From contig JAUWZV010000001.1 in the NCBI GenBank assembly GCA_030615105.1, forward strand, positions 1,399 to 65,398: 64,000 bases of DNA. The letters are read 5' to 3'. Position numbers and translations under genes: made by a program. This document shows positions 16,312 to 37,038 of the stretch, piece after piece. Within the stretch, counting starts at the first letter, position 1, and every line of letters begins with the position of its first letter. This DNA comes from Desulfobacteraceae bacterium (GTDB taxonomy: Bacteria; Desulfobacterota; DSM-4660; Desulfatiglandales; B25-G16). A model generated the notes under the pieces. It worked only from the letters and a program-made list of their open reading frames with translations, was not told the origin of the DNA and searched no databases.

Positions 16312-16503
16312 ATGCATACTACGAATCACAAAAAGTTAAAAGCAGAAATTGAAAATTATAGGATTAATGGAAAAAATATTTTCGAATCAAGGATGGATAA
16401 TGCATTTTCTATGCTCAAATTCAAAACACAGCTGAATCGAACCAAAACCAAGAAGAAAGATGGGGTATCATGCGGCGCATCTGCTGTTTATATTGATCTC
16501 TTG
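16312..16503 (+). pseudogene. possible N-terminal fragment of a DDE (IS4/IS1634-like) transposase
   Basis: FSMLKFKTQLNRTKTKKKDGVS resembles N-termini of IS4-type transposases, recalled from memory. It is cut off after about 64 codons by the 291-bp repeat. Confidence 0.3.
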
Positions 16504-16794
16504 CCTATCAACAATCGGCAGAGGACCCCGGGCGTAAGCCCGGGGGTGAATGCCTTAATGAGCACAACCTTGATGTCTTTTCTTACGTTCCAAGGCTCCC
16601 GGCCTGGTCTTTTCAACGACTTATCTGCAAGGGAGTTTTGCCCCCTCCGCATTCCCCCGACAAGTCGGGGGCTGCGGTTTCCCCCGCTGATAAGTCGTGA
16701 AAAGGACGGCGGCTTCTCACCAGTCACTCAGAAAAAACATCAAGGCCTGCCCTTGTCTCCAAGTGCCACGGGCGTAAGCCCGTGGGTATCTACT
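16504..16794 (+). repeat. 291-bp rod-hairpin repeat, copy 1
   Basis: Identical to 36748-37038 except for 7 substitutions and no indels (manual comparison). It contains two 8-bp hairpins with GTAA loops (16526-16545, 16766-16785) and a long central self-complementary region. Confidence 0.85.
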
Positions 16795-17088
16795 TTGAAG
16801 ATTAATAATATTCACAGTTTTTGCCTGAGACATTAGTATCATTAGTCTATCAGGCAAGAAATATGCCTTTTACAGGTTCAAACAGGGCGCATACCGATAG
16901 CATTCATTTATGAAAGCCTTTCATTTGTAATTAAAGAAAGATTATAAAAAAATAATAAAAAAAACTTGACAAGAAGGAAATAATAGGTGAATTTACAGTC
17001 TAAAATTAAACTGCTGGCCGGTAGATTAGTAATATTATACTGAAATGTCTACGGCATTCGAAAAAATTTTACGGCAGAAAGCTGCCAT

Positions 17089-17736
17089 ATGAAAATGGGA
17101 AAAAAATTAAACAGTCAGCCAGTTTATCATTCTCATAAAGTATCAAGTAAAAAGAACAGAAAAACTCAAATACTTGAAGCTGCCGCTTTGGTCTTCAAAA
17201 AAAAAGGTTATGATAGGGCCACTCTTCAAGACATTGTCAGCATTGTAGGCATAACCAAGGCGGCTCTCTATCATTACTTTCAAAACAAACATGAGCTGTT
17301 TTATACAATTATTCACACCATGATGATAAGGGGCATCGATGAGCTGACTAAAATTTTCGGAATGCCTATTTCGGCAGAAGAAAAGATCTGTCTTGCCTTC
17401 AAACAACACTTTTCCTCCTATGAATCTCATTTCCCTGAATTTTTGGTACTGCTTCATGAAAAGACCAATTTACTGCCTCCAAAAATGGAGAAACAAATCA
17501 AACAAGAATTTAAGCAGTATATGTCTTTTTGGGAGCAATTTATAAGGGAAGGAGTTGCAACAGGGCATTTTAGGCAAGATTTAGATCCAAAGATCATGAC
17601 TTGGTCGGCCATCGGGATGTGCAATTGGGTTTATAAATGGGCTTCCCCAAAAGGAAGGCTCAAATTCAATCAGATTGCTGAGATTTTTACCAGCATTTTT
17701 TTGGTAGGGATCCGGCATCGAGAAAAGGTCGGATAG
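17089..17736 (+). CDS. TetR/AcrR-family transcriptional regulator
   Basis: ILEAAALVFKKKGYDRATLQDIVSIVGITKAALYHYFQNKHELF is the TetR N-terminal HTH. Confidence 0.85.
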   Translation: MKMGKKLNSQPVYHSHKVSSKKNRKTQILEAAALVFKKKGYDRATLQDIVSIVGITKAALYHYFQNKHELFYTIIHTMMIRGIDELTKIFGMPISAEEKICLAFKQHFSSYESHFPEFLVLLHEKTNLLPPKMEKQIKQEFKQYMSFWEQFIREGVATGHFRQDLDPKIMTWSAIGMCNWVYKWASPKGRLKFNQIAEIFTSIFLVGIRHREKVG

Positions 17737-17961
17737 ATCGCCAATATTGGCTCGCATTGGAGGAACTCTTTTACATGCCACCACTTAAGCCAGCTGTTTA
17801 AAACGTTTTTAAAAGGAATAGCTACGGAAAAAAAGATAGTGAACTCACCGATTTCGGAATTCTTCAGCTTAAGGTATTCTGCAGCCAAGCAAATATTGTC
17901 TCCGCCGAAGCTCGGAAGGAAAGAAACTGTGATTTCACCTACTTAGAAGAAGGACGCCAAC

Positions 17962-19119
17962 ATGGATTTCTCATTAAGTGAAGAACAGGAGATCTTACGT
18001 AATTCAATAAGGAAATTCCTGGAAAAGGAATATCCTAAAGAATACATTAGGAGAATCGATAAAGAAGAAGAATATCCTTTGGAGATCGTTCAAAAGATGG
18101 CCGAGTTGGGATGGCTTGGTCTTTCAATTCCAGAGAAATATGGAGGGGTTGGGGGTGACATTCTTGATCAGACTCTGATGATTGAAGAACTGGCTCGGTG
18201 TTCATCATCCATCGCTATAGCTTACTTGCTCAATATTTGTTTTGGTGCCAAGACCATCATTTACATGGGTAGCGAGAAGCAGAAAAAAAAATATTTACCT
18301 AAAATAGCCTCCGGTGATCTGATATTTTGTCTGGGCCTGACAGAGCCCAGCGGCGGAACAGATGCCCTCTCCTTGTCCACTCGAGCTGTAAGAAATGGTG
18401 ACCATTATGTAATCAATGGACAGAAGGTATTTATCACTGGGGCTCACGTATCTCACTACATAATTCTTGTGGCTAGGACGGGTCCCAAAAAGAAAAAACT
18501 AACACGAAATATTGGCATTTTTTTAGTGGATAGCAAGTCAAAAGGGATCAATATCCGTCTGCTTGATAAGCTCGGAAATAAAGCAACTGGAACCTGTGAA
18601 ATATTTTTAGAGGATGTGGTCGTTCCAGCCGAAAACATACTAGGTGATGAACGAAATGGTTGGTATCAAATCGTTAACACTCTTAATAACGAGAGGATTT
18701 CAGTAGCCGCTATTTGCTTAGGAACGACCCAGGCAGTTATCGATGAATCTTTGAAATATGTCTTGGAGCGAAAGGCATTTGGCAAGCCCATAGGTCAGTT
18801 TCAATATATTCAGAAATATATTGTCGATATGGTGATGGATCTGGAGGCCTCCCGGTTACTTACTTACAAGGCCGCCTGGCTTGAATCTCAAGGCAAAAAT
18901 TGCAATATTGAAGCTGCCATAGCCAAATTGGTGGCATCAGAGGCCTGTTTTAAAGCAACCACGAACGGAATGCGCATTTTCGCCGGATATGGGTACATGA
19001 TGGAATATGACATGCAGAGACTGTGGCGTGATTCTGAACTTTGGATCTTTGCCCCCATATCAAATGAAATGTCACGCAACCTTTTAGCGCAAGAATTGGG
19101 ACTCCCCAGATCTTATTGA
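17962..19119 (+). CDS. acyl-CoA dehydrogenase
   Basis: 385 aa. GLTEPSGGTDA and a typical ACAD three-domain pattern, with a C-terminal helical domain containing the catalytic-region motif YGYMMEYDMQRLWRD. Confidence 0.9.
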   Translation: MDFSLSEEQEILRNSIRKFLEKEYPKEYIRRIDKEEEYPLEIVQKMAELGWLGLSIPEKYGGVGGDILDQTLMIEELARCSSSIAIAYLLNICFGAKTIIYMGSEKQKKKYLPKIASGDLIFCLGLTEPSGGTDALSLSTRAVRNGDHYVINGQKVFITGAHVSHYIILVARTGPKKKKLTRNIGIFLVDSKSKGINIRLLDKLGNKATGTCEIFLEDVVVPAENILGDERNGWYQIVNTLNNERISVAAICLGTTQAVIDESLKYVLERKAFGKPIGQFQYIQKYIVDMVMDLEASRLLTYKAAWLESQGKNCNIEAAIAKLVASEACFKATTNGMRIFAGYGYMMEYDMQRLWRDSELWIFAPISNEMSRNLLAQELGLPRSY

Positions 19120-19246
19120 TCAAGTAATGTGGTCTCATGGAGCAGGCTGGGGTATGTATAAATCAAACATCATACGGTTTTCTGGTGGCAGAAAACCGGG
19201 GAAAGGGTAGTTTTTAAAACATTAATCACCATTGTGGGTATAAAAT

Positions 19247-20386
19247 ATGGGCAAGAGAGTAGCGATTGTTGATACGGTTCAGACCGAACACGGAGACAAA
19301 CTTGAGGACAATATCCGGGAGATCATGTTTGGCGTTGTCAGACAGCTCCTGGATCGTGTGGGAATTGAGAAATCCGAAATCGGGACCATGGTTTCAGCCT
19401 CCTCTGATTATTGGGAGGGGATCAGTTGCTCCAACGCCTATTATTATGATGCTGCGGGTGCCAATCTGAAGAGCGGTTCCAACGCGGAAGAGGACTCGGG
19501 TCTCGCCTTTATCTATGGTTTTATGCGAATTCTCTCGGGGGACTATAAAACCGCGTTGGTCATCAGTATAACGAAATGTTCGGAGACCCCCTCAGCGGCC
19601 ACTCTAACACACATGAGTGCGGACCCTTTTTTTCACCGGCCGGTCGGGCTAAATGAAACGGTGGTTGCAGGTCTTCAGGCAAGGGAATATATGAACCGCT
19701 ATGGCATCACAGAAGAAGACCTGGCCATGGTGGTGGTAAAAAATCTCGGAAACGCCCAAAAAAATCCATATGCACATAGGGGTGGGCAACTGTCTGAGGA
19801 AGAGGTCTTGGCTTCATCCATGATGGTCTATCCCTTGCGAGAAATGGATATCCCCTCCACCTCTGATGGTGCCTGCGCAGTTTTATTGGCCGAGGAAAAG
19901 ATTGCCAGGGATCTGACCGATACACCGATATTTGTTGAGGGCGTGGGCTGGGGTACTGATCATTCCTTTTTGGGAGATCGAAATCTTTTAAATGGATCCT
20001 TGCCAAAAGCGGCTGAGAGGGCCTATCAGATGGCTGGGGTAAAAGATCCTTCCAACGAGATAGACATGGCCGAAATCTGCGATATAACCTCCTTTCATGA
20101 GATCTTATGGATGGAGCAATTGGGTTTTTGCCCCCCAGGAAAGGGAGCAGATCTTGTCAAAGACGGCGTAACAGCTATGCATGGCAAACTTCCGGTGAAC
20201 CCTTCCGGAGGTTTGTTTGGGGCCAATCCCTATGTTGCCCGCGGTCTGATCCGGATTGCTGAGGCCGCTATGCAGCTAAAGGGAGAGGCGGGAGATCGTC
20301 AGGTGCTGGACGTGAGCAGGGCGGTTGCCCAAAGCGTTCACGGGTTGGGCGGTCAATTACATTCTGTCATTATTCTTGGAACATAG
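19247..20386 (+). CDS. SCP-x-type thiolase-like protein lacking the nucleophilic Cys
   Basis: Thiolase-like throughout (VNPSGGL, HGLGG). Where the paralog has ATCGSTG, this protein reads NAEEDSGLAF. Confidence 0.8.
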   Translation: MGKRVAIVDTVQTEHGDKLEDNIREIMFGVVRQLLDRVGIEKSEIGTMVSASSDYWEGISCSNAYYYDAAGANLKSGSNAEEDSGLAFIYGFMRILSGDYKTALVISITKCSETPSAATLTHMSADPFFHRPVGLNETVVAGLQAREYMNRYGITEEDLAMVVVKNLGNAQKNPYAHRGGQLSEEEVLASSMMVYPLREMDIPSTSDGACAVLLAEEKIARDLTDTPIFVEGVGWGTDHSFLGDRNLLNGSLPKAAERAYQMAGVKDPSNEIDMAEICDITSFHEILWMEQLGFCPPGKGADLVKDGVTAMHGKLPVNPSGGLFGANPYVARGLIRIAEAAMQLKGEAGDRQVLDVSRAVAQSVHGLGGQLHSVIILGT

Positions 20387-20398
20387 GGAGAATTTGGT

Positions 20399-21565
20399 AT
20401 GGGTCACGCAGTAGCCATTATCGGTACGGGTCAGACTCACTGTGGAAAAAGAACGGATGTTTCCTATCCTGAATTGATTTATGAGGCAGTAAGTAGGGCC
20501 TTTGAGGATTCCGGGCTGAGTCCGGATGATATTGAGGCCGTTGTGTCAGGCTCGATGCCTCCTGCCATGGAAGGTGTCAATAACCCCCACCTTTATTGGG
20601 CCGATGCCATGGGTGCCGGAGGAAAACCTCTCATAAGGATTGCGACCTGTGGTTCTACCGGCATATCGCTGGCTCATGCCGGTTTTTATCATGTGTCCTC
20701 AGGGCTTTTCGATCTGGTCCTGGTGGTGGGGGCAGAAAAGATGTATGAGGGAAACCCACAGGGGGTCATGGCCACTGTGGCAGATCCATTCTTTCAGAGG
20801 CCATTTTTGGCCGGTGCACCTGGGATCTTTGCACTTCAATCCAACGAATGGGCTCACCGTTATGGCCTTGAAGAGAAACGGGTGCGAATGGCTGCTGCCG
20901 AGTTATCAGTGCGAAACCATACGGATGCCCTGGATAATCCCTATGCTCACATTAAGGTTAAGATTGCTGTCGAGGATGTTCTTAAATCCCGTGTCATTGC
21001 TTATCCAGTCAGGATTCTGGATGTGTGCCCGGCCTCAGATGGTGCCTGCGCGGTTATCATGGCCTCGGAAAGAATGGTCAGAAAAATGGGGGCGAAGCCA
21101 GCCTGGATTCGTGGGGTAGGTTACTGTGGCGAAGAGGCATTTTTTGGTGAGGGAGACAAAGTGGTCTGGCAGGCTGCCATCAATGCGGCCAAAACAGCTT
21201 ACAAGCAGGCAGGCATAACAGATCCACGGAAAGAAATAGATGTGGCTGAGGTGTATAACCCTTTCACATTTCAGGAAATGCTTTTTTATGAGTGCTTTGG
21301 TTTTTGTGATTTTGGCCAGGCCTGCGAGCTTGTGGAGAAAGGGGTTGTTATGAGAGGAGGTGATCTCCCTTGCGATCCTTCCGGAGGTGTGCTTTGCACC
21401 AATCCCATCGGTGCAACCGGTTTACAGAGGGCCGCTGAGATCGCACTTCAGGTAACCAACAAGGCGGGTGACCATCAGATTCCCGGAGCAAGTACGGGAC
21501 TGACACATGCCATGGGAGGCCTTGATCAATTTAATGGGATTATGATCATTTCAAATTCATTATAG
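20399..21565 (+). CDS. SCP-x-type thiolase-like protein (Cys present)
   Basis: IRIATCGSTGISLAHA...VVGAEKM and CDPSGGV. It has CTNPIGATG where thiolases usually have GHPxGA(T/S)G. Confidence 0.8.
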   Translation: MGHAVAIIGTGQTHCGKRTDVSYPELIYEAVSRAFEDSGLSPDDIEAVVSGSMPPAMEGVNNPHLYWADAMGAGGKPLIRIATCGSTGISLAHAGFYHVSSGLFDLVLVVGAEKMYEGNPQGVMATVADPFFQRPFLAGAPGIFALQSNEWAHRYGLEEKRVRMAAAELSVRNHTDALDNPYAHIKVKIAVEDVLKSRVIAYPVRILDVCPASDGACAVIMASERMVRKMGAKPAWIRGVGYCGEEAFFGEGDKVVWQAAINAAKTAYKQAGITDPRKEIDVAEVYNPFTFQEMLFYECFGFCDFGQACELVEKGVVMRGGDLPCDPSGGVLCTNPIGATGLQRAAEIALQVTNKAGDHQIPGASTGLTHAMGGLDQFNGIMIISNSL

Positions 21566-21580
21566 TCACAGGGGGCATTT

Positions 21581-22045
21581 ATGAGTGGAGAATCCAGAAT
21601 ATTAGAAGGCTACGTTAGTTTGCCCTATAAATGGGCAATGGGTGCTGCTACCACCCGTTTCTTTGAAGAATTAAAAAACAAGAAAATTATGGGAACAAAA
21701 TGTCCAAAATGTAATCGGGTTTTGATACCGGCTAGAAGCTTCTGTTCCCATTGCTTTGAGAAAATAGATGAGTGGAAGGAGGTTTCACAAGAAGGAACAC
21801 TTAGGACCTGGTGTACGGTAAATTTTTCTTATGAAGGGCAACCCAAGGAGCCTCCTTACATCCTCGGCATCATTGATCTGGATGGCGCGGATGTAGGACT
21901 TCCCCATTTTGTGGGAGGCGTGGATTTGGACGACTTTGAGGAAGCTGCCAAAAAGGTTCATATCGGAGGCAGGGTAAGGGCGGTCTGGAAAGAGAATAGA
22001 ACGGGGAATATCCTGGATATAGATTATTTCCAACCGGTTGAATAA
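21581..22045 (+). CDS. DUF35 zinc-ribbon / OB-fold protein (thiolase partner, BbsA-like)
   Basis: CPKCNRVLIPARSFCSHC rubredoxin-like ribbon followed by an OB-fold-like C-half. It lies immediately downstream of the thiolase pair. Confidence 0.8.
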   Translation: MSGESRILEGYVSLPYKWAMGAATTRFFEELKNKKIMGTKCPKCNRVLIPARSFCSHCFEKIDEWKEVSQEGTLRTWCTVNFSYEGQPKEPPYILGIIDLDGADVGLPHFVGGVDLDDFEEAAKKVHIGGRVRAVWKENRTGNILDIDYFQPVE

Positions 22046-22120
22046 TCTCTGAATTCTATCTTTGTGCTTTTGTGGGCAAGGAATTCGTTAGCTTATTAAA
22101 ATCTATTTTAAGAGGACGCC

Positions 22121-23746
22121 ATGGTTAAGAAAGAGAGCAGATCTACCATTTCTGGGATTTCTCAGAAAATTTTCTACCCACGGGCAGACATTGTCCACAC
22201 AATGACTGAAGGGAAAGAGGAGAAACCAGGGGAATTTCCTTTCACTCGAGGAATTTTCCCCCAGGGCTACCGTCAACAGCCATGGATGGAGAGTTTGGCG
22301 AGCGGCTATGGATTACCTGAAAAAACCAACGAGCGGGAGAAGTACTTGTCTAAGGTCGGACAGGCGGGATACGGTGGCCGAGCGTCTATCAACCTGGTCT
22401 TTGATAGGCCTACGTTCTGCGGCATGGACAGTGATCATCCCATGGCTCAGAACGAATTGGGCGAGGTTGGTGTGATCATTGATTCCCTGATGGACATGGA
22501 GCGACTTTTTAAGGGCTTCCCCTTGGACAGATTGAACGTAGGTTTTATTGCTGACCGCTCAGGCCCTATCATTATGGCCATGTATGTGGCCCTTGCTGAC
22601 AAGCTTGGTATCTCTAGGCATAAGTTGAGGGGGATTGTCTGCAACAATCCTTTGACAGACTTCTACTGCAGCAAGACCCCGATGTTTCCACTCCGAGAGT
22701 GCCTTCGTCTGATGGTGGATTGCATCAAGTTTTGTACTGAAGAGGTGCCCAATTTCAACATTGCTCGAATTGGAGGTTACAACACCAGGGAACTGGGCAG
22801 TACTGCGATTCAGGAGATCGGTTTTAACTTAGCCATTGCAAAAACCATTGTGGAGGCCTGTGTAGAGGAAGGACTGAGTGTTGACAAATTTGCGGGCAAC
22901 ATCAGCTTTCAGTTTTCCCAGGGGAGCTACTTTTTCGAGGAGATTGCCAAGATACGCGCGGCGCGAAGGATTTGGGCCAAATTGCTGAAAGAAGGATTTG
23001 GTGCAGAGAAAGACTCTATTTGTCGGATGAAGATCCACATGCAGACTGCTGGCTCCAGCCTCACAGCACAGGAGCCCCTTAACAACATTGCTCGCATTGC
23101 GCTTCAGGTTTTGTCTGCGAGCCTCTCCGGCTGCCAGAGTATGCATATTGCCTCCTTTGATGAAGCCCTTGGCATTCCTACCGAAGAAGCTGCTAGTGTG
23201 GCTATCAAAACCTCCAAGATCGTGATGCACGAGACAGGAATAACAGATGTAGCTGACCCATTAGGTGGTTCCTATTATATGGAGGCTCTGACAGAGGAAA
23301 TTGAGAAGAGGATTGTGAAACTTATGGAGCGTATCGACGAACTTGGAGGAGCGATTAAGGCAATTGAGGAGGGGGTTTTCGAACAAGAGATTGCCGATGC
23401 CAGTTACTTGCTTCAAAAAGAGATATCTGAGGGCAAACGAGTTATCGTGGGGATGAATCGTTTTCAGGAGAAAGACCAGAAGCTGGAGTATAAGGTCTTT
23501 AGGCCCGATCCGAAGGTATCCAGCATAGCTATAGATCGTGTGAGGAAACTGAGGGAAGAGAGGGATCAGGAGCGGGCGGAAAAATGTATTGAACAAATTA
23601 GAGAAGCAGCGCGAAGAAATGAGGCACTAATGCCCCTCTATATCGAAGCTGCTAAGTCCAATGTCACGCTTGGGGAGATGATTAGAGCCCTGGAAGAGGG
23701 ACTGGGTACATTCCAATATTCGCCGATTATCTCCAGGGTTGAATAA
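22121..23746 (+). CDS. B12-dependent acyl-CoA mutase large (substrate-binding) subunit, paralog 1
   Basis: FPFTRGIFP, FFEEIAKIRAARRIWAKL, HMQTAGSSLTAQEPLNNIARIALQ, DEALGIPTEEA and DPLGGSYYMEALT are methylmalonyl-CoA-mutase family blocks. Confidence 0.85.
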   Translation: MVKKESRSTISGISQKIFYPRADIVHTMTEGKEEKPGEFPFTRGIFPQGYRQQPWMESLASGYGLPEKTNEREKYLSKVGQAGYGGRASINLVFDRPTFCGMDSDHPMAQNELGEVGVIIDSLMDMERLFKGFPLDRLNVGFIADRSGPIIMAMYVALADKLGISRHKLRGIVCNNPLTDFYCSKTPMFPLRECLRLMVDCIKFCTEEVPNFNIARIGGYNTRELGSTAIQEIGFNLAIAKTIVEACVEEGLSVDKFAGNISFQFSQGSYFFEEIAKIRAARRIWAKLLKEGFGAEKDSICRMKIHMQTAGSSLTAQEPLNNIARIALQVLSASLSGCQSMHIASFDEALGIPTEEAASVAIKTSKIVMHETGITDVADPLGGSYYMEALTEEIEKRIVKLMERIDELGGAIKAIEEGVFEQEIADASYLLQKEISEGKRVIVGMNRFQEKDQKLEYKVFRPDPKVSSIAIDRVRKLREERDQERAEKCIEQIREAARRNEALMPLYIEAAKSNVTLGEMIRALEEGLGTFQYSPIISRVE

Positions 23747-23760
23747 AGGGGAGGAATGAC

Positions 23761-24171
23761 GTGGACAAACAGAGAAAAATACGTGTGCTACTTGCAAAGG
23801 CAGGGTTGGATACCCATGAGAGGGGGGTGAAGCTGATTGCCGCCTCTCTGCGGGACGCCGGTATGGAGGTGATTTATAGTGGTGTGTTCCAAACGAGCAT
23901 GAGCATTACCCGTACCGCCCTCCAAGAGGATGTGGATGTCATTGGCCTGAGTTATTTGTGTGGAGCGCATCAATCATTGACTCAGGAGATCTTGAAAGAG
24001 CTTCAAAAAAACGGGCTGGGAGATGTAGCGGTTATCTGCGGCGGTATTATTCCTGGTGAAGACATCGAGCAGATGAAGGCCATAGGCGTCAAAGAGATTT
24101 ACGGTCCTGGTACACCTATGGAGAGAATTATCAAAGGTATACATGAATTGGCTGAATCCAGGATTCATTAG
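23761..24171 (+). CDS. cobalamin-binding small subunit, paralog 1
   Basis: GTG start with a GGGGAGG RBS. RVLLAKAGLDTHERGVK carries the DxHxxG motif, followed by a Rossmann-like B12-binding domain. Confidence 0.85.
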   Translation: MDKQRKIRVLLAKAGLDTHERGVKLIAASLRDAGMEVIYSGVFQTSMSITRTALQEDVDVIGLSYLCGAHQSLTQEILKELQKNGLGDVAVICGGIIPGEDIEQMKAIGVKEIYGPGTPMERIIKGIHELAESRIH

Positions 24172-24413
24172 ATTGTTATTTGAAATGAGGTTGTTCGCAC
24201 TATGTATGCTATACCCGATCTCTGAAACGAAAGCTCTAAGATCTTAGGGCATCATTGGAAGATATCTCCGTTTTGCGTAGGGATGAATAGCATAGTTGTT
24301 GAGGGATATGGGGGAATGATTCTCTCGACACGCGAGATAGTCCCTTCTTTGATGCCCCGGCCTTTGGTTGGGGAGTGATAGTGGGAAGCGAGCTTAAGGG
24401 AGGAGGAAGTATC

Positions 24414-26114: not shown

Positions 26115-26244
26115 GGCAGATTGTAATTTGTTATGCGGTGAAGAATGGTTTTGGATAGAGTGTTCCAGAATTGTGGGATCTAAAGCCATTTTCTGAACAC
26201 AACCTGACCAGTTATACTCAATACCTGATTTACGGAGAGTAGCT

Positions 26245-26643
26245 ATGTCCAATGGAAGGAAATTAAGAGTGCTTTTAGCAAAGCCTGGCTTGGACGGACA
26301 CGACTTAGGTATCAAGTTGGTGGCAAGAGCCTTGAGGAATGCCGGGATGGAGGTTGTGTACACTGGGCTTAACATAACTCCGGAAGAGACGGTAACCGTA
26401 TCAATCCAGGAGTCAGTGGATGTGATAGGGGTTAGTTATCTATCTGGTTCACATCTTCTGCTAACTGAAAAGATAATGGGAATACTCAAGGAAAAAGATG
26501 CTGGCCATTTTAAATTGGTAGTAGGTGGAATTATTCCAGAAGAGGACATCCAGAAATTGAAGCAGATGGGTGTTGCGGAGGTCTTCCGACCTGGCACATC
26601 TGTTAAAGAAATTGCGGATTCCATAGGCCGGATGGTTTGTTAA
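26245..26643 (+). CDS. cobalamin-binding small subunit, paralog 2
   Basis: RVLLAKPGLDGHDLGIK carries the DxHxxG motif. Confidence 0.85.
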   Translation: MSNGRKLRVLLAKPGLDGHDLGIKLVARALRNAGMEVVYTGLNITPEETVTVSIQESVDVIGVSYLSGSHLLLTEKIMGILKEKDAGHFKLVVGGIIPEEDIQKLKQMGVAEVFRPGTSVKEIADSIGRMVC

Positions 26644-26906
26644 AACGGTTTAATTTAGAGACTCGGCCGGTGCTAATATCGTGATGTTTTGCCTCAAGAT
26701 TCTTAAAGGGGATTGAGGTTTATATTTGCTTGAGCTATCGGGGTTTGTGCCCTGCCATGGGGGTTCTGAATGTGGGAGAGATCCAAGAATGGGTTGTAAA
26801 AATATAAGTGCCTCTTTTGCACGCATTCGTGGAAATAGGTCCTTTCATGCTGAGAAAAGAATGAGAGGGGAATATTATCTCAATATGGTGAGTTAGGAGA
26901 TTTTTC

Positions 26907-28721: not shown

Positions 28722-28744
28722 ATTAAATAAATAGGATCTAAAGA

Positions 28745-29644
28745 ATGGGCGAAGAATTGGAATATCTAATTCAAACGATCATGGGGGGGCTATCCACAGG
28801 GAGCGTGTATGCCTTAATTGCCCTTGGGTTTGTTCTGATCTATAAAGCTACAGACGTTTTAAATTTTGCTCAGGGTGAACTGATGATGATGGGGGCCTTT
28901 TTCTGTTTCACGGCCATCGTCTATTTCAAACTTAGTTTCATTCCCGCCTTTTTGCTATCCCTTGTCTTTTCTGCGGTCATAGGCTTTCTCATCAATGTGA
29001 TCGCTATTCGGCCCATGGTAGGCAAACCCGTATTTTCCATAGTGATGATCACTATCGGCTTGGCTACCATTTTTCGAAGTATAGTTGGCCTCATTTTTGG
29101 ACATATTGAGAAACCATTTCCTTCGCCTTTTCCCATTGAAAAAGCCATCAATATAGGAGGCTTATACATCTCCATGGTGCATATCTGGATGATCTCCATT
29201 AGCATCATCTTCGTGCTTTTATTTTACCTCTTTTTCAAGTTCTCAATCCTCGGTATCGCCATGAAGGCCGCCGCCAATGAGCAGATAGCCACCATGCTAC
29301 AGGGCATCAATATCAAAAAAATGTTTGCCCTGTCATGGGGCATTGCTGCAATTACTTCCACGGTTGCAGGCGTTTTTCTGGCCAGTGCGAGCTTCATCCA
29401 TTGTGATATGGGGTTCATTGGTCTCAGGGCATTTCCAGCAATCGTTCTCGGTGGCTTGGATAGTGTGGCGGGAGGGGTCATCGGCGGATTTACCATTGGT
29501 TTGATTGAGAACTTGGCTGGTGCTTATTTAGATAAGGCCCTTGGGGGTGGGGTTAAGGAGATCACATCCTATGTCATTGTGATCTTTATCATGATGATCA
29601 AACCATATGGCCTTTTTGGAAAGGAACATATCGAAAGGGTATAA
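28745..29644 (+). CDS. LIV-type ABC transporter permease (LivH-like)
   Basis: Multi-pass membrane protein. NFAQGELMMMGAF and the C-terminal IKPYGLFGK are typical of LivH. Confidence 0.85.
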   Translation: MGEELEYLIQTIMGGLSTGSVYALIALGFVLIYKATDVLNFAQGELMMMGAFFCFTAIVYFKLSFIPAFLLSLVFSAVIGFLINVIAIRPMVGKPVFSIVMITIGLATIFRSIVGLIFGHIEKPFPSPFPIEKAINIGGLYISMVHIWMISISIIFVLLFYLFFKFSILGIAMKAAANEQIATMLQGINIKKMFALSWGIAAITSTVAGVFLASASFIHCDMGFIGLRAFPAIVLGGLDSVAGGVIGGFTIGLIENLAGAYLDKALGGGVKEITSYVIVIFIMMIKPYGLFGKEHIERV

Positions 29645-29650
29645 GTATTA

Positions 29651-30694
29651 ATGACTAGTGGCAACTTTAAAGAGACCTATAGGGAAGATATAAAGGTTTT
29701 CCAGACCTTTTTCGTCAAATTCTGGTTAGTCCTTTTTATTTTGATCATGCTCTTTCTTCCTTTCATCGCGGACAGATACTTTATCTATCTGGCCAATTTA
29801 TCGGGGATAGCGATCATAGGGGCATTAGGGATAAATCTACTTACCGGATATACCGGCCAGGTCTCACTGGGGCATGCTGCCTTCTTGGCCATTGGCGCTT
29901 ACACCGCAGCTATTTTGTCGTCCAGGTTTGGAATTCCCTTCTGGATCCTTATTTTTGTTTCAGGCATATCCGCTTCCCTGTTTGGCCTGATTATCGGTAT
30001 CCCCTCTTTAAGGTTACGAGGGCTTTATCTCGTGATTACTACTATGGCCTTCCAATTTATTGTAGAACATGTGCTCTTCCGATGGGAGACCCTGACGCAT
30101 GGGGACGAAGGGATTGCACTGCCTGTTCCAAGTATCGCAGGTTTCAGCTTTGAAACGGACCAGAGATTCTACTATCTAATCTTTGTTGCGACCGCACTTG
30201 CCATAATAACCATGAAGAATGTCATCCGGACAAGGACGGGGAGAGCCTTACAGGCGCTCAGGGACAGGGATATCATAGCTGAGACCATGGGTATCAACTT
30301 GGCAAAGTATAAACTCCTGTCCTTTATTGGCAGTTCATTTTATGCCGGTGTGGCAGGAGCGCTCTATGCTTACTACTTGGCTTTTATCAGTCCGGATCAT
30401 TTTAGCCTGATGGTCTCTATTCAGTACATCGCCATGATTATCGTTGGGGGTATGGGGACTATACTTGGCTCCATCTTCGGGGCTGTCTTCATTATCTTGC
30501 TTCCAGAGATGCTTGGCTTTATGAGCAGGGGTATTGCAAGCCACTTCCCTCTTTTCGAAACCGGTTTTGGAGATGTGAAAAACCTTGTTTATGGGCTCAT
30601 CATCGTTGGCTTTCTGATCTACCAGCCCGACGGGCTTTATGGGTATTGGATCAGGATCAAGACCTATTTTAAGACTTACCCGTTCACCTTTTAG
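29651..30694 (+). CDS. LIV-type ABC transporter permease (LivM-like)
   Basis: LLTGYTGQVSLGHAAFLAIGAY and GINLAKYKLLSFIGSSFYAGVAGALY are typical of LivM. Confidence 0.85.
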   Translation: MTSGNFKETYREDIKVFQTFFVKFWLVLFILIMLFLPFIADRYFIYLANLSGIAIIGALGINLLTGYTGQVSLGHAAFLAIGAYTAAILSSRFGIPFWILIFVSGISASLFGLIIGIPSLRLRGLYLVITTMAFQFIVEHVLFRWETLTHGDEGIALPVPSIAGFSFETDQRFYYLIFVATALAIITMKNVIRTRTGRALQALRDRDIIAETMGINLAKYKLLSFIGSSFYAGVAGALYAYYLAFISPDHFSLMVSIQYIAMIIVGGMGTILGSIFGAVFIILLPEMLGFMSRGIASHFPLFETGFGDVKNLVYGLIIVGFLIYQPDGLYGYWIRIKTYFKTYPFTF

Positions 30695-30808
30695 ACCTAT
30701 GATCCTAACGTGGGCGGAAAAATATCTTTAGAGGAAGGGAGGTGACAAATGGTTTTTGTTAATTTTGGGAATGAAATATTAATGTTAAACAATGAGGAGG
30801 TATAAAAA

Positions 30809-32020
30809 ATGAAAAAGCTGATGTTAATCATGGTGTTTTTTGCCGCTATGCTATTTGCAACACTGCCAGTTATGGCTGGTGGTGTTCCAGGCGTGGATGA
30901 AAAGACTATAAAGATTGGAATGCTGACAGATTTTTCCGGCCCCGGGAGGCATCCGGGACACGAGTGTTATATGGGCGTTAAAATGTGGGTGGATCAAGTG
31001 AATATGAAAGGCGGTATCAATGGTCGGAAGATCAAGCTTTTTTATGGTGACCATGGTTGGGATCCAAGCCGGGGTATGGCTGAGGCCAGGCGCTTAGTCG
31101 CCCAACATGACATTTTTGGCCTCGTTGGCACCTGTGCTAGCTCTGTCAATAAGGTCCTCATGCCATTTTTAAAAAAGGAGAAATTACCTAACATCGGTCC
31201 CATGTCTGTTTCCAGATTCCTGTGGGATCCGCCCAAGAAATACACTTTTGCCATCCTCACGGACACGAATCGTGTTTTCCAGGTTTTGGTGGAGTATATC
31301 GTTCAAGACCTTAAAGTGAAAAATCCCGCGATCGGTATTATCTATCAGGATGATGCATGGGGGAAGGATGGCCTTCGGGGCCTGAAGACGGCTGCCAAGA
31401 GGCATGGGATTACACTTGTAGCCGAGGAATCTTACAAACGGGGTAGCGTGGACTTTGCCACACAGATGCTGAATTGCAAGAGGGCTGGGGCCAAGTATAT
31501 TTTCCATCCAGGCTTCTCAGCTGCTATGGCAGGCATTATGCAAGAGGCCGCCAAAATTAATTATTCTCCAAAATTTCTTGGTGAGACAGGCTGCATGACT
31601 TTTTCAATGCTGAAGGTCGCCGGAGCATTGGCTAAAGATCAGATTTTCGGGTACCCCTGCGCCGTGGATGGTGTGGAAGTTTCGGGAATAAAAAAGCTCA
31701 AACAGATAAGCAACAAATACAGGCCGAAACTTGATTCCAAATTTAAATCGGGTGACAAACTGGATCCCAACTATATTATAGGCTATGGTGCAGGCTTAGT
31801 CTTCGGGGAAGGTTTGAAGAGAGCTGGTCGCGATATAACACGAGAAAAATTTATAAAGGCGTTGGAAAGCCTAAAGGATTGGGAAATGGGCGGCATCTTC
31901 GGCCCTGTTACTTATGGTCCGGATGATCGCGATGGATCTGGCTGGACCATGGTATATAAGGCAGATCCAGAGAACATGCGTTTTGTCCCAGTGACCGGCT
32001 TCAGAAAGCCCGCACAATAG
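30809..32020 (+). CDS. ABC transporter periplasmic substrate-binding protein (LivK / Peripla_BP_6 type)
   Basis: Signal peptide MKKLMLIMVFFAAMLFATLPVMAGG. IKIGMLTDFSGPG start, typical of this binding-protein family. Confidence 0.85.
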   Translation: MKKLMLIMVFFAAMLFATLPVMAGGVPGVDEKTIKIGMLTDFSGPGRHPGHECYMGVKMWVDQVNMKGGINGRKIKLFYGDHGWDPSRGMAEARRLVAQHDIFGLVGTCASSVNKVLMPFLKKEKLPNIGPMSVSRFLWDPPKKYTFAILTDTNRVFQVLVEYIVQDLKVKNPAIGIIYQDDAWGKDGLRGLKTAAKRHGITLVAEESYKRGSVDFATQMLNCKRAGAKYIFHPGFSAAMAGIMQEAAKINYSPKFLGETGCMTFSMLKVAGALAKDQIFGYPCAVDGVEVSGIKKLKQISNKYRPKLDSKFKSGDKLDPNYIIGYGAGLVFGEGLKRAGRDITREKFIKALESLKDWEMGGIFGPVTYGPDDRDGSGWTMVYKADPENMRFVPVTGFRKPAQ

Positions 32021-32275
32021 CGAGGGAAAAGGTATCTATAAATAATCCAATCAACTTCCTGCCCACCCGGGACTTAAACCTCAACCGAGGGGTCCTGGGT
32101 AGATGCAGGGATATAGGTATAAAGATGGACCTCCTAACCGGCACTGTAATGCCAACCCCAAGGTGTTTACCACAGGTTGGCCCACAGGTTAAAATAACCG
32201 GACTTGCTGGTGGATTTAATGATTGTTCCACTATTAAGGGTTTCCATTATTATTACTATTAAGGAGGTTAATATA

Positions 32276-33964
32276 ATGTTTGATGCAGAAACCCTAAAGA
32301 AGGATTTGGAAGACCGGAAAGCCTGGGAACGGTCCTTTAAAAAGCGATACTTGAAAAGCTTTGAAAACAAAACACATTCAGGAATTCCAGTTAAATCGGT
32401 CTATTCACCTTCGGATATTCTGGATTTTGACTTAAAAAAATGTCCTTCCCCCGGGAACTATCCATACACACGGGGAATCTACCCGGCCCAATACCAGTTT
32501 CAGGCCTGGATGAACCAGCAGGTACACGGATATGGGCAGGCGGAGGATACCCGGGAGAGGATGGACATATTAGTGAAGGAGGGGATGGAAGGTTACTTTG
32601 GGAACCTGGTTTTTAATCTGGTCCTGGATCTGGTCTCACAGGCGGGATTAGACCCGGATGATCCTGAGGCACGGGGAAAGGTTGGCCAGGTGGGAGTCCA
32701 TATTAGCTGCCTGAAAGACTTGGAGATTCTTTTTGATGGTTTGCCCCTTAAAAAGGTTAATGCCAGTTTTATTGTGGGTGAACCCTCTATCTGTTTGCTG
32801 GCCATGTACATTCTATACGGAGAAGGTCGTGGTGTACCAAAGGAAAATTTAAGAGGCAACACCATGAACTACCTATTGCGGGGGTTTAATTGGGATGTGG
32901 CCATGTATCCCCCAAAGAATGCCCTCAAGATCTCGGTTGAACTGATTCGCTACTGCTCCCGTTTCATGCCCACCTGGAATACGACCAATTTAAGTGGTTA
33001 TATTATTCGGGAGGCAGGCGCCTCTGCTGTCCAGGAACTGGCATTTACCCTTGCCAAGGGAATGAATCTTATCGAGACCTGCATGGAAGCAGGCCTTAAA
33101 CCAGATGATTTTGTCCCTCGCTTTGGCTTTCAACTCGGCTTTCACAACGACTTTTTCGAAGATATTGCCAAGTACCGGGCCTTGCGCCGGATGTGGGCAA
33201 CCATTAATCACGATCGATACGGGTGCCGGAATCCTAAGTCCCTCCAGGCCAGAATTCATACCCACACCTGTGGAAGTTCACTGGTGGCCCAGCAACCCAT
33301 GAATAACATCATCCGAGCGACTCTACAGACATTTGGGGCAGTTCTTGCTGGAACCAATGCCTTGCAGACGAGCGCTTATGATGAAGCTCTTTCAATTCCA
33401 ACGGAGCAGGCAGCCACTCTTGCTCTCAGGACCCAGCAGATTATCCAGCATGAGAGTGGGGTCACAAAAGTATCCGATCCACTTGCCGGAAGCTATTATC
33501 TGGAAAGGCTGACCGACGAAATGGAAAAGAGTGCCTATAAAATTCTGGACACGATCGAAGGGATGGGAGGTTTTATCAAGGCGTACGAAACGGGCTGGCT
33601 TAGGGAGCAAATTGCCGAGGAAGCATTGAAATGGCGGCATCGATTGGATAGTGTGGAGGAGGTCATAGTAGGTTTGAATCGCTACCAGGAAGAGGGAGAA
33701 AAGGTTGAGGTGCCGCACTTTCATGTAGATGAGAAAATCGAGCAACGAGCCATTGAAAGGATCCAGGAATACCGTAAAAACAGGGATCAGGGCAAGTGCC
33801 AGGAAGCATTAAATCGCCTCCGGAAAGTGGCCGTGAAGGTGGAGCAAGGCAACCGGCATTACTTTTTAATGGAGGCTCTGATTGATGCTTACAGAGCCAA
33901 GGCTACCCTTGGTGAGACCATGTCAATCCTGAAGGAAATCTTAGGTTATGGTTATGCTTACTGA
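32276..33964 (+). CDS. B12-dependent acyl-CoA mutase large subunit, paralog 3
   Basis: Track ORF 32204. ATG 32276 follows an AAGGAGGT RBS. Family blocks: YPYTRGIYP, FFEDIAKYRALRRMWATI, HTHTCGSSLVAQQPMNNIIRATLQ, DPLAGSYYLERLT. Confidence 0.85.
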   Translation: MFDAETLKKDLEDRKAWERSFKKRYLKSFENKTHSGIPVKSVYSPSDILDFDLKKCPSPGNYPYTRGIYPAQYQFQAWMNQQVHGYGQAEDTRERMDILVKEGMEGYFGNLVFNLVLDLVSQAGLDPDDPEARGKVGQVGVHISCLKDLEILFDGLPLKKVNASFIVGEPSICLLAMYILYGEGRGVPKENLRGNTMNYLLRGFNWDVAMYPPKNALKISVELIRYCSRFMPTWNTTNLSGYIIREAGASAVQELAFTLAKGMNLIETCMEAGLKPDDFVPRFGFQLGFHNDFFEDIAKYRALRRMWATINHDRYGCRNPKSLQARIHTHTCGSSLVAQQPMNNIIRATLQTFGAVLAGTNALQTSAYDEALSIPTEQAATLALRTQQIIQHESGVTKVSDPLAGSYYLERLTDEMEKSAYKILDTIEGMGGFIKAYETGWLREQIAEEALKWRHRLDSVEEVIVGLNRYQEEGEKVEVPHFHVDEKIEQRAIERIQEYRKNRDQGKCQEALNRLRKVAVKVEQGNRHYFLMEALIDAYRAKATLGETMSILKEILGYGYAY

Positions 33965-34000
33965 TGGGGTGGATATAGCTTTATTTTTGGAGTTGAGAGA

Positions 34001-34432
34001 ATGGCAGAGGGTACAACTAATCAGGCTAAAGAGGAATATGGTCGTTCAGGGCAAGATAGAAAAATAAGGGTATTATTGACCAAATCCCGGATGGATGCAC
34101 ATGATCGCGGGATCAGAGATGTGGCAAAGGAACTGAGTAATGCCGGGATGGAGGTCGTTTTTACCCGGTATGCACTGCCGGAGGAGATTGTGAAGACCGC
34201 CATTCAGGAGGGTTCGGATGTAATCGGAGTGAGTTGCTCTACTGGAGGGCATCTCTACGTGACGGAAAGGATTCAAGACTGTTTGGAAAAAGAAGGGATA
34301 AAAGAGATCAAGGTGATTTTTGGCGGGATCATACCGGACGTGGATGTGCCCAAGATGAAAGAAAGAGGCGTGGTGGGCATATTCGGACCGGGTTCTTCTG
34401 TCCAGGAGATCATCCGGGCAATTACTGAATGA
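34001..34432 (+). CDS. cobalamin-binding small subunit, paralog 3
   Basis: RVLLTKSRMDAHDRGIR carries the DxHxxG motif. Confidence 0.85.
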   Translation: MAEGTTNQAKEEYGRSGQDRKIRVLLTKSRMDAHDRGIRDVAKELSNAGMEVVFTRYALPEEIVKTAIQEGSDVIGVSCSTGGHLYVTERIQDCLEKEGIKEIKVIFGGIIPDVDVPKMKERGVVGIFGPGSSVQEIIRAITE

Positions 34433-34478
34433 AAACAGCCCCTGGCTGGCAGCTAAATGAATTGGAAAAGAGACTTTT

Positions 34479-35273
34479 ATGCTGGGAATCAAAAATCTCG
34501 AAATTACCTATCATGACATTATTCTGGTTATAAAAGGCATATCTTTGACAGTCAAAGATGGTAGTATGGTCGCCCTTTTAGGTGCCAATGGAGCAGGCAA
34601 AAGCACTATTCTGAAGGCGGTATCAGGGGTTCTCGAGGTCGAAGATGGCGATATTGAGGATGGAACTATTGATTTTGATGGGATTCGTCTTAATAACAAA
34701 ACCCCCCATTTCATTGTCAAAAAGGGTCTCATTCAAGTTCCAGAAGGCCGCCGTATCTTTGATGAACTCACCGTGGAAGAAAATATCCGGATTGGCTCTT
34801 TTCTGCGGAAGGATTCAAAGAAGATAAAAGAAGACTACGAAAATGTTCTGGCTTATTTCCCTTCTTTAGTCCACCTAAAGAAGCGCCTTGCCGGTTATCT
34901 TAGCGGAGGAGAACAGCAGATGCTGGCCATTGGTAGAGCCATGATGGCAAAACCACGATTGCTTATGCTCGACGAGCCGTCTCTGGGGTTGGCCCCTATA
35001 CTAGCTCATCAGGTTTTTAATAGGGTTAAGGAGTTTAATAGCAGGGAAGGGGTTTCTGTTTTGCTGGTCGAGCAAAATGCCATTATGGCCTTAGATGTGG
35101 TGGAGTATGGCTACATTATGGAAAACGGCAAAATCGTCTTGGACGGCCCAAGCCATAAACTCGTTGAAAACCCTGATATTAAGGAATTTTATTTGGGACT
35201 TACGGATGTGGGTGGGAAGAAGAGCTATCGGGATATCAAACATTACAAAAGAAGGAAGCGATGGCTTTCTTGA
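34479..35273 (+). CDS. LIV-type ABC transporter ATP-binding protein (LivF-like)
   Basis: Walker A GANGAGKST, signature LSGGEQQMLAIGRA, Walker B LLMLDEPSLGLAP. Basic C-terminal tail KHYKRRKRWLS. Confidence 0.85.
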   Translation: MLGIKNLEITYHDIILVIKGISLTVKDGSMVALLGANGAGKSTILKAVSGVLEVEDGDIEDGTIDFDGIRLNNKTPHFIVKKGLIQVPEGRRIFDELTVEENIRIGSFLRKDSKKIKEDYENVLAYFPSLVHLKKRLAGYLSGGEQQMLAIGRAMMAKPRLLMLDEPSLGLAPILAHQVFNRVKEFNSREGVSVLLVEQNAIMALDVVEYGYIMENGKIVLDGPSHKLVENPDIKEFYLGLTDVGGKKSYRDIKHYKRRKRWLS

Positions 35274-35301
35274 CCTTTTTTACAAATCCTTGGAGGTAGG
35301 G

Positions 35302-36747
35302 ATGGTCGATAATAAAGAAATTGAAAGGTTAAAGAGGACGTATGAAGCCTGGAAAGAAGAGGATTTAGAAGGGCCTATCAGGAAATACGGTGAACGGGTT
35401 GAGAGATTTGAAACAAGGTCGGAGATACCCGTTAAGCCTTTATACACGCCATTGGATATTGAAGGATTTGATTATCTGGAAAAACTCAATTTCCCGGGCA
35501 GGTATCCATTTACGCGAGGCATCTATGCAGAGGGGTACCGTACGAGGACTTGGTTCGTCCGGGGCTTGTTTGGATACGGAACGGCGGAAGAGACGAATCA
35601 GAGAATGAAATTCCTTATTCATCAAGGAGCGACTGGGCTTAACATTGTTTTTGACGCCCCCACGGGTTGGGAAGGCATAGACGCGGATAACCCATTGGCT
35701 ATGGGTGAAGTGGGTAAAAACGGGGTTTCTGTGAATACACTGAAAGATATGGAGGATATGTTCAAGGGACTCCCTGTTGAGAAATTGAATGTAACGTGGG
35801 CCTCCTGTGTTGGGGCATCAAACATACCCCTGACGGCTATGTATATTGCCATGGCCCAAAAGAGAGGTTTAGATATTTCTAAATTAAATGGGGCGGCCAT
35901 AAATGATATCTTTGTGGGATATTCCCTTAACGTCTGTTCTCTGCCTTACACCCATCCCAAAGACGCCCTAAAGGATTGGTGTGATGCAGTGGAACATGCC
36001 ATTTTGCACATGCCGAATTGGTTTCCGTGCTCCATTGCTTCTTATGAGATGGGTGAATCAGGAGCGACGCCCGTTCAACAGATCGCATTTACTATTGCTG
36101 CGGCCATCTCCTATACCAGAGCGCTTATGGAGCGAGGCCTCAAGGCAGAGCAGATTTCTCCAAAATATGCGGTTTTTCTATCCTGTGGGAATATTTTTTT
36201 AGAAGAGGTGGCCAAGTACCGTGCTCTGAGAAGAATGTGGGCCAAGACCTTCAGAGAGAAATTTGGGGTTACGTTAAAGAGAGGGCTGCAGTGCAGGATC
36301 CATACCCAGACCTCAGGATTGACCCTGAGGGCCGAGCAACCCCTAAATAATATTGTCAGAACGACATGCCAGAGTTTAGCTTCCATTTTCGGTGGAACCA
36401 ATTCCTTATACACAGACCCTTATGACGAGGTAGTGGGTCTCCCTACCGAAGAATCTCATCGTCTTGCAATGAGGACTCAACAGATCATCATAGAAGAAAC
36501 AGGGGTTGCCGATACTATCGATCCACTTGCTGGGTCCTATTACATTGAATCTCTCACGGACAAGGTGGAGGAGGAGGCCTGGAAGATAGTGGATAGGGTT
36601 GAGGAGATGGGCGGAATGCTGGAGGCTATTGAAAGACGGTATTTCCGGTCCCTGATTGATGAGTCTTACCATAGATATCTCAAAGCTGTGGAAAACAATG
36701 AAAAGGTTATTGTTGGATATAACAAATACCACCACACAGAAGAACTA
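35302..36747 (+). pseudogene. B12-dependent acyl-CoA mutase large subunit, paralog 4, C-terminally truncated
   Basis: ATG 35302 follows a GGAGGT RBS. The track ORF 35095 is a spurious upstream extension overlapping livF. Family blocks are present up to VIVGYNKYHHTEE. The last ~90 residues seen in paralogs 1-3 are replaced by the 291-bp repeat. No small subunit follows. Confidence 0.7.
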
Positions 36748-37038
36748 CCTATCAACAATCGGCAGAGGACCCCGGGCGTAAGCCCGGGGGTGAATGCCTT
36801 AATGAGCACGACCTTGATGTCTTTTCTTACGTTCCAAGGCTCCCGGCCTGGTCTTTTCAACGACTTATCTGCAGGGGAGTTTTGCCCCCTCCGCATTCCC
36901 CCGACAAGTCGGGGGCTGCGGTTTCCCCCGCTGATAAGTCGTGAAAAGGACGGCGGCCTCTCACCAGTCACTCAGAAAAAACATCAAGGCCTGCCATTGT
37001 CTCTAAGTGCCACGGGCGTAAGCCCGTGTGCATCTACT
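36748..37038 (+). repeat. 291-bp rod-hairpin repeat, copy 2
   Basis: Same orientation as 16504-16794, with 7 substitutions. It begins inside the mutase-4 reading frame. Confidence 0.85.

Follow-up and report, generated by a model that had tools for sequence, protein, structure and literature searches.

Two co-oriented repeats around an acyl-CoA mutase cluster of a Desulfobacteraceae bacterium: probable separate insertions of a transposase-less IS200/IS605-type element

The 64,000-nucleotide window considered here (positions 1,399 to 65,398 of contig JAUWZV010000001.1, from the Desulfobacteraceae assembly GCA_030615105.1) carries a cluster of acyl-CoA metabolism genes between two long direct repeats, at 16504-16794 and 36748-37038. 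The gene content of the interval is as originally claimed, running from tetR to a fourth mutase: it encodes a TetR regulator, an acyl-CoA dehydrogenase, two SCP-x-type thiolases, a ChsH2-like OB-fold protein, three complete pairs of acyl-CoA mutase large and small subunits, an AMP-forming ligase, Liv-type permeases with a binding protein and one ATPase, and finally the large subunit of mutase 4, which is truncated. The original prediction took the repeat pair to delimit this cluster as a module that could be lost, gained or amplified as a unit. We find instead that the repeats are very probably separate, recent insertions of a multi-copy, transposase-less element of the IS200/IS605 type, namely a palindrome-associated transposable element (PATE), with a right-hand junction that probably derives from recombination.

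The repeat pair and its insertion sites

Alignment with MAFFT and a repeat finder confirmed that the two repeats lie in the same orientation and match without gaps over 291 nt, with seven substitutions (98% identity; left-copy positions 16566, 16630, 16714, 16752, 16760, 16785 and 16787) and a longest identical block of 83 bp, a similarity far above chance. The repeat is made up of the tetranucleotide CTAT, a 285-bp element and one T; the features of both copies and of their flanks are collected in Table 1. As one plus-strand frame of the element is stop-free over 95 codons, both insertions create read-through fusion open reading frames (ORFs), at 16312-16836 with a transposase remnant and at 35095-37080 with mutase 4; the stop-free frame is probably a chance product of GC-rich hairpin DNA. 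A scan for sigma-70 promoters and terminators around the left copy returned nothing above consensus-level matches.

Table 1. Coordinates of the repeat copies, their parts and the flanking features in the window. MITE, miniature inverted-repeat transposable element; TIR, terminal inverted repeat; TSD, target-site duplication.
Feature	Coordinates	Strand	Basis or remark
Left copy, 285-bp non-autonomous IS200/IS605-type element (probable PATE, A-type)	16509..16793	+	Empty site in the sister strain; same boundaries elsewhere
Right copy, 285-bp element	36753..37037	+	Left junction in mutase 4, right junction at the 3' tip of an HD gene
CTAT target 5' of left copy	16505..16508	+	Present in the L251 empty site; part of the target, not of the element
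CTAT target 5' of right copy, within mutase 4	36749..36752	+	Present in the uninterrupted allele (L119/L246)
Left-end subterminal hairpin, CCCCGGGC-GTAA-GCCCGGGG	16526..16545	+	Read from sequence; 17 nt from element start
Right-end subterminal hairpin, CCACGGGC-GTAA-GCCCGTGG	16766..16785	+	8 nt before element end (...GTATCTAC)
Core hairpin module (~185 nt), left copy	16566..16748	-	nhmmer
Core hairpin module, right copy	36809..36992	-	nhmmer
IS4/IS701-like DDE transposase pseudogene	16312..16924	+	About the first 110 codons left; frameshift near 16850; interrupted by left copy
Mutase 4 (acyl-CoA mutase large subunit), N-terminal 483 of 569 codons	35302..36752	+	Intact 99%-identical allele P0002
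Right flank: last ~45 nt before the TonB start like the 3' end of a YfbR-like HD gene; TonB-family gene, start 37084, frameshift ~37295	37039..37690	+	
B-type MITE with core, 251 bp, TIRs GAGACCTTTACA...TGCAAAGGTCTC	9961..10211	+	Intergenic, upstream of secG
TSD of this MITE, ATAAT (5 bp)	9956-9960 and 10212-10216		

The left copy lies within a decayed transposase gene; phmmer hits of its product include the N-terminal part of a 484-aa protein that contains DDE_5 and DDE_Tnp_1 domains. In tblastn comparisons transposase residues 1-66 fall at 16312-16509 and residues 67-88 at 16795-16860 in one frame, with a further segment past the frameshift at 16850-16924. Thus, the 64-codon DDE remnant that had been described in front of the repeat is real, but it does not end there, since its frame resumes beyond the copy. 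In a sister strain, 96-98% identical, both insertion sites are empty. Its left-hand locus (contigs L251 and L252, 96-97% identical) encodes a metallo-beta-lactamase (MBL)-fold protein, the same transposase remnant, the TetR regulator and the acyl-CoA dehydrogenase, and has no element. The empty site reads ...TTGCCTAT/TTTGAAG... (the slash marks the insertion point), and the filled site TTGCCTAT/285 bp/TTTGAAG differs from the uninterrupted TTGCCTATTTTGAAG of L251 by the element only, with no target duplication. To judge from these sequences, the left copy is a clean insertion and not a rearrangement scar.

The right copy indeed replaces the 3' end of mutase 4, as originally proposed: the ORF at 35095-37080 can be aligned with Pfam MM_CoA_mutase up to position 444 of the 512-position model and no further (aa 554, about nt 36757), and the sister strain has an intact allele of 569 aa. 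Four sister contigs from one project (ENA/Logan; L119, L120, L246 and L248) are 98.3-98.4% identical to window 25305/30056-36752 and continue past the equivalent of 36752 with the remainder of mutase 4 and then its B12-binding subunit, another ABC ATPase and an enoyl-CoA hydratase, among others; the sister comparison spans the interval except for the stretch 19215-21957. At the junction the sister has GAACTACCTAT/TGGTGTT and the window GAACTACCTAT/CAACAATCGG. The empty site, which can also be written CTACCTAT/TGGTGTT, is precise and free of a TSD, with TGGTGTTTTTGAGG as the 3'-side sequence of mutase 4 beyond the insertion point in the allele of L119 and L246. Given these empty sites, both copies are precise 285-bp insertions 3' of CTAT, which also explains why the original prediction found no TSD at either copy. 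Such insertion 3' of a fixed short target is a hallmark of IS200/IS605 single-strand transposition (PMC7290912). Both insertions postdate the split from the sister strain; no second element copy was found at a sister-strain contig end.

As a separate observation, L119 and L246, two independent assemblies, both start at the equivalent of window position ~21958, inside the OB-fold gene at 21581-22045, which suggests a repeat or a strain-variable insertion at that point in the sister strain.

The element and its dispersed family

Alignments of 15 copies and of the ends showed that the 285-bp element lacks TIRs: its termini, CAACAATCGGCAGAGG... and ...GGGTATCTAC, are not mutually inverted. Instead, each end carries a subterminal hairpin, the two being similar in sequence, with GTAA loops and identical orientation, and they are asymmetrically placed, the 5' one 17 nt and the 3' one 8 nt from its terminus. 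Asymmetric near-terminal hairpins of this kind are known from PATEs and IS605-type elements (PMC3119063). Among 110 left ends the CTAT on the 5' side is nearly invariant, whereas positions further 5' are random; right ends terminate in GTATCTAC and are followed by T in 70%. The same start and end recur between unrelated flanks in other metagenome-assembled genomes (MAGs), including the loci L099, L027, L056, L093, L115, L078, L002 and L063, among others. A transposase is too big for 285 bp, and the ORF that reads through the element has no Pfam match.

A relative that does encode a transposase is present in the metagenome locus L136. The left-end hairpin of the element recurs there at the left end of an IS200-like insertion sequence (IS), followed by a Y1_Tnp ORF (PF01797, E = 1.5e-26) and then by a right end, AAGTGCCACGGGCGTAAGCCCGTGGGTATCTAC, identical to that of the window element. 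A tblastn search with an IS608 TnpA query, which served as a lead only, singled out two of the loci that carry the left hairpin. Since L136 shares both ends, the 285-bp unit (hereafter A-type) amounts to the ends of an IS200-like IS with a different core in place of the transposase gene, and it fits the definition of a PATE (for this and for the IS200/IS605 features see PMC7290912, PMC3119063 and PMC10055086). The guide rule of IS608, by which bases 5' of the hairpins pair with the cleavage sites, fits loosely at the left end and not at the right end. The left hairpin, searched together with its conserved flanking bases, matched at least 117 metagenome stretches; most of the matches listed are a shell-only element of ~105-115 nt, comprising the left and right ends without the core, and one such element also lies upstream of the HD-TonB locus of the relative L127.

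Two further observations concern the arrangement of ends in metagenome loci. At 833-1500 of L136 a shell-only PATE is directly followed by the full IS200-like element, forming a small pile-up of mobile elements; this IS sits 3' of a CTAT-like site made of the first element's right end plus TAT and borders directly on the 5' end of an ORF whose product, judged by eye, looks like a transposase of the ISL3 type. In L195, L220, L222, L237 and L153 the end hairpins stand head-to-head, an inverted right-end-like hairpin lying directly before a left-end-like one, which recalls REP (repetitive extragenic palindromic) sequences and bacterial interspersed mosaic elements and is unlike the PATE layout.

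The center of the repeat is likewise dispersed and occurs within different units. A 22-mer from the repeat center (GGAGTTTTGCCCCCTCCGCATT) matched at least 117 stretches, all outside the window's own genome; among the matches listed these come from about 25 MAGs at species level, which bear the labels Desulfobacteraceae, Desulfatiglandales or Deltaproteobacteria, with at least 49 stretches in one MAG and many at contig ends. There were no matches in viral contigs, and a phage origin of the core was accordingly set aside. Comparison of 126 copies showed that a core of ~160-190 nt is shared by at least three kinds of unit: 15 copies are A-type, 66 belong to a 251-bp unit (B-type), 34 are core alone or other, and 11 are cut by a contig end. 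The A-type copy of L099 is 97-98% identical to the window copies, i.e. as close to them as they are to each other. The repeat finder also detected a third match in the window itself, where the central 128 nt recur at 10001-10128 with 89-90% identity, within a B-type unit. This commonest form of the family in other MAGs has 12-nt TIRs and a 5-bp TSD that is perfect in 10 of 25 copies and matches at four of five positions in another 5 of 25, against control rates of 0.1% and 3%. The 251-bp unit thus has the TIRs and fixed-length TSD of a classical MITE, which the 285-bp unit lacks, and its shell is that of a DDE-type MITE; therefore the same core rides two unrelated transposition systems. Small mobile repeats nested in the PATEs of Haloquadratum offer a parallel to a core carried within such shells (PMC3119063).

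The core folds into a long hairpin that is more stable than shuffled sequence on both strands, with z = -7.9 for the window minus strand and -5.1 for the plus strand. Across 103 distinct copies the consensus fold reaches -44.4 kcal/mol on the window minus strand as opposed to -14.6 on the plus strand. Double-sided covariation is seen in 17 of 37 pairs (e.g. GC 68/CG 27, UA 51/GC 45, CG 52/GC 50); these counts include the same inherited change repeatedly, and the invariance of the 22-mer is due to ascertainment. The non-Watson-Crick cells hold 327 G-U as against 38 A-C, distributed over about 11 positions. In core-only copies the basal 15-20 bp vary in sequence between lineages and stay complementary. 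The apex is non-palindromic and asymmetric, with an unpaired AGGGGGCAAAAC that is invariant (again by ascertainment). These features suggest that selection acts on a single strand, as RNA or as DNA, namely the complement of the window plus strand. Any function of the core we infer rather than observe. The copies are mostly intergenic and have no orientation bias (downstream gene in the same orientation 41 times and opposite 29 times; upstream gene 30 and 34), which makes a cis-regulatory role unlikely; a cis-regulatory RNA was rejected on this absence of bias among the 126 copies. Rfam searches gave only a tRNA and noise over the whole window at the gathering threshold, and no family for 16300-17000 at E <= 10. 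An omega-RNA-bearing PATE was likewise rejected, given this lack of an Rfam match and a structured strand that, by covariation and G-U pairs, runs antisense to the left-end-to-right-end direction.

Among described systems the element is closest to the PATEs, exemplified by the HqIRS families of Haloquadratum walsbyi (PMC3119063) and the PATE-like elements of Geobacillus stearothermophilus and Halanaerobium (PMC10055086, PMC7290912). Like these, it has neither TIRs nor target duplication, has similar near-terminal palindromes at both ends with the 5' one further in, and inserts beside a conserved 4-5-nt oligonucleotide; it is too short for a transposase, shares its ends with tnpA-bearing elements, and has both terminal-only mini versions and strain-specific insertions. 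It departs from them in its hosts, which are Desulfobacterales-type bacteria, in its CTAT target, and in an interior that is a ~185-nt hairpin module common to other element types instead of a remnant of tnpA or tnpB or an omega-RNA, with the structured strand of this module antisense to the left-to-right direction. With the REP/REPIN-RAYT (TnpA-REP) systems (PMC3116915, PMC3337134, PMC8266576) it has in common HUH/Y1-type biology, short GC-rich hairpins, a high copy number, a right-end complement that reads GTAG and then a hairpin, a long hairpin with maintained pairing and, in some metagenome copies, head-to-head hairpin pairs. However, a REPIN combines two inverted REP hairpins and goes with a single-copy RAYT gene in the genome; here the end hairpins are direct and match the ends of ordinary IS200-like ISs, and the long hairpin is a separate module, not a pair of inverted REPs. 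A tblastn search with an E. coli RAYT sequence found no match in 1.4 Mb of loci. The core itself resembles SMR-A of Haloquadratum, a foldback repeat of ~110-250 nt found inside mobile elements such as PATEs and also alone (PMC3119063), and both this repeat and the palindromic ERIC and Correia MITEs are, like the core, mostly intergenic and form a long imperfect hairpin. It has no sequence relationship to any of the three, is larger, has a branched asymmetric apex, and has basal stems that are lineage-specific yet complementary.

Mechanism and alternative explanations

These observations are consistent with a mechanism in which a Y1 (HUH) transposase, supplied in trans by an autonomous relative, would move the element by single-strand 'peel-and-paste', presumably through a single-stranded circle. 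The transposase is predicted to recognize the two subterminal hairpins and to cleave on the 3' side of CTAT (left end) and of CTAC (right end), upon which the excised strand would be reinserted 3' of another CTAT with no target duplication. One insertion hit the dead DDE-transposase gene upstream of tetR and the other mutase 4, and the bracketing of the cluster is then an accident of which CTAT sites were struck. IS200/IS605 insertions are strand-biased relative to replication, and for this reason the shared orientation of the two copies needs no special cause; GC skew in the window tracks gene orientation, so that it gives no direction of replication against which to set the lagging-strand bias expected of such elements.

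At the right-hand copy a simple insertion would leave the remainder of mutase 4 downstream, but the DNA from 37039 on is not mutase 4. It holds a TonB-family gene whose homologues are 195-196 aa long and which tblastn splits over two frames; the gene is complete but frameshifted near 37295. The gene order in relatives is an HD-domain (YfbR-like) gene, an overlapping TonB-family gene, a Zn-ribbon gene and nifU; in the window the HD gene is not detectable, and homology to the HD gene of relatives resumes within ~10 nt of a GCTAT. As the simplest history we suggest that the HD gene had received a second element copy close to its end and that homologous recombination between this copy and the one in mutase 4 would have removed all DNA between them, including the rest of mutase 4, the small subunit, the ABC ATPase, the enoyl-CoA hydratase and anything beyond. 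Such a real deletion by copy-by-copy recombination is probable, if by no means assured.

The alternative for this junction is an assembly artefact, in which mutase 4 would continue after the insertion and a separate copy would lie in the HD-gene end upstream of the TonB-family gene. In its favour, the unit has many copies, and for the same strain a Logan assembly from short reads (L118, 100% identical, covering window 16767-36777) breaks inside both copies. Moreover, both flanks of the right copy resemble ordinary insertion sites, the left one 3' of CCTAT and the right one by the GCTAT just mentioned, and close versions of the ABC ATPase and hydratase that should have been lost are present on a 5.8-kb NCBI/Logan contig. 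Nevertheless, the window contig passes correctly through the left copy, whose flanks form one pseudogene and match the sister strain, and through the 9961-10211 copy; and as the two long copies differ at seven sites and share no identical block beyond 83 bp, long k-mers or reads can tell them apart. The 5.8-kb contig may itself stem from elsewhere; the NCBI sources of the small-subunit protein next door include at least one bulk sediment metagenome, as distinct from this MAG. A homologue search with the C-terminus of mutase 4 for a contig joining the element to the 3' part of the mutase gave distant matches only, and exact-protein look-ups (NifU with two start codons, the window mutase 4 and P0200) matched no record. 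On balance, we regard the artefact as rather unlikely, though it is the most serious of the rivals. The points that weigh against our overall interpretation largely concern the same junction: it could be an assembly join across a multi-copy repeat; the ABC ATPase and hydratase on the 5.8-kb contig are 98.8% identical in amino acids to those of the sister; and the HD site before insertion is not exactly reconstructible, the region being 87% identical to relatives. To these may be added that no tnpA with matching ends was found in the 64-kb window; current mobility, in trans through TnpA, is suggested indirectly by the two strain-specific insertions.

Two other explanations address the repeats as a whole. 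That they are the ends of a composite mobile unit, or mark a circle integrated by homologous recombination that brought in the tetR-to-mutase-4 module, might be suggested by direct repeats around ~20 kb of functionally coherent genes and by the broken genes on the left side of both copies. Yet the sister cluster occupies the same left-hand site without a copy there, its mutase 4 is unbroken and leads on into further cluster genes, the remnant of the transposase gene continues from one side of the left copy to the other, whence the outer flanks are not one interrupted site, and a composite would be one without a TSD. In a composite transposon or translocatable unit, segment and repeats are present or absent as one; here the sister has the segment without the repeats. 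We consider this explanation barely credible. It is also very improbable, if slightly less so, that the repeat is mainly a multi-copy structured RNA gene or a cis-regulatory RNA conserved in place. The very stable fold, the strong and strand-specific covariation of the core and its non-palindromic apical region would suit such an RNA, but copies stand at unrelated loci, those of the window are missing at the orthologous sites of the sister, there is neither an orientation bias relative to neighbouring genes nor an Rfam family, and the shells have transposon hallmarks.

The interpretation as separate PATE insertions also bears on how far the pair defines the module. Because the sister has the same order (MBL-fold gene, transposase remnant, tetR and acyl-CoA dehydrogenase on one side, mutase 3 through mutase 4 on the other) with both sites empty, the cluster was in place before either copy. 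The copies are not scars left by a duplication of the module or by its movement. The proposal that the pair defines or delivered the module is hence not borne out, given a dispersed family and a sister cluster with neither copy. A repeat present at many loci and an interval conserved in relatives were what had been named as refuting it, and this is largely what the close relative shows; in a more distant one (GCA_043811775.1, 87% amino-acid identity) the right half of the cluster is common and the left half is arranged differently. Over longer times the cluster is plastic, though these repeats are not the cause. The repeats do hold up in principle as substrates for recombination, excision, circle formation or amplification through the two copies being a generic possibility. 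As markers of past rearrangement they fare unequally: the right copy lies where the window departs from its 98%-identical sister, whereas the left copy is a simple insertion. Repeat-bracketed modules such as IS26 translocatable units and MITE-flanked integrons likewise have two co-oriented mobile repeats flanking accessory genes; unlike in those, the block here predates both copies. An inversion, by which the hydratase and CoA-ligase genes that lie on the minus strand to the left of the cluster would be the downstream genes of relatives flipped, was discarded, as at 31-32% identity these are paralogues.

Neighbouring features and implications

Some features near the right junction deserve mention in their own right. 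Four tandem CAAATGA heptamers at 37067-37094 overlap the start codon of the TonB-family gene and are missing from relatives, and the frameshift in this gene lies in an A-rich run; together they could reflect slipped-strand phase variation, a pseudogene or sequencing error. Window 37105-38481 matches the sediment-metagenome contig L128 with 87.5% identity over the TonB-family gene (37105-37890) and 98% over the NifU region (37886-38481), which suggests an allelic replacement or recombination boundary near 37886. Elsewhere in the window a different family of intergenic repeats, unrelated to the 285-bp unit, is found at 40156-40565, 48936-49043, 51753-51861 and 57226-57536 (94-128 nt, 67-96% identical, one copy inverted), and short GC-rich palindromes occur at 43413-43455, 57370-57412 and 63296-63338. 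Positions 1-9246 are likely an integrated element of low GC content (37-38%) that adjoins a tRNA gene (9163-9246, minus strand) and encodes a tyrosine integrase (7932-9128), a primase-helicase (1304-3103), an ERCC4-like nuclease and helix-turn-helix proteins.

In annotating this genome, the repeat pair should be taken neither for a composite transposon nor for the border of a genomic island: the cluster is a resident one, one of its mutase paralogues has been knocked out by insertion of a mobile element, and the distal genes (the B12-binding subunit of mutase 4, the ABC ATPase and the hydratase) are either lost or mis-assembled. For Desulfobacterales-type MAGs in general, a repeat family with tens of copies per MAG, often at contig ends, means systematic contig breaks and possible mis-joins. 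The element adds to the bacterial PATEs a well-delimited family whose insertions are proven by empty sites, whose target is defined as CTAT and for which an autonomous relative has been identified, and its structured module is common to three kinds of element. This shared core is the only feature that might perhaps be worth further work. It is conceivable, though we hold it doubtful, that the ~185-nt core is a functional, strand-specific module of structured RNA or single-stranded DNA, captured both by an HUH-type PATE and by a DDE-type MITE and also spreading alone; if so, Desulfobacterales-type bacteria would have an abundant class of RNA, so far undescribed, that travels as a hitch-hiker on transposons.

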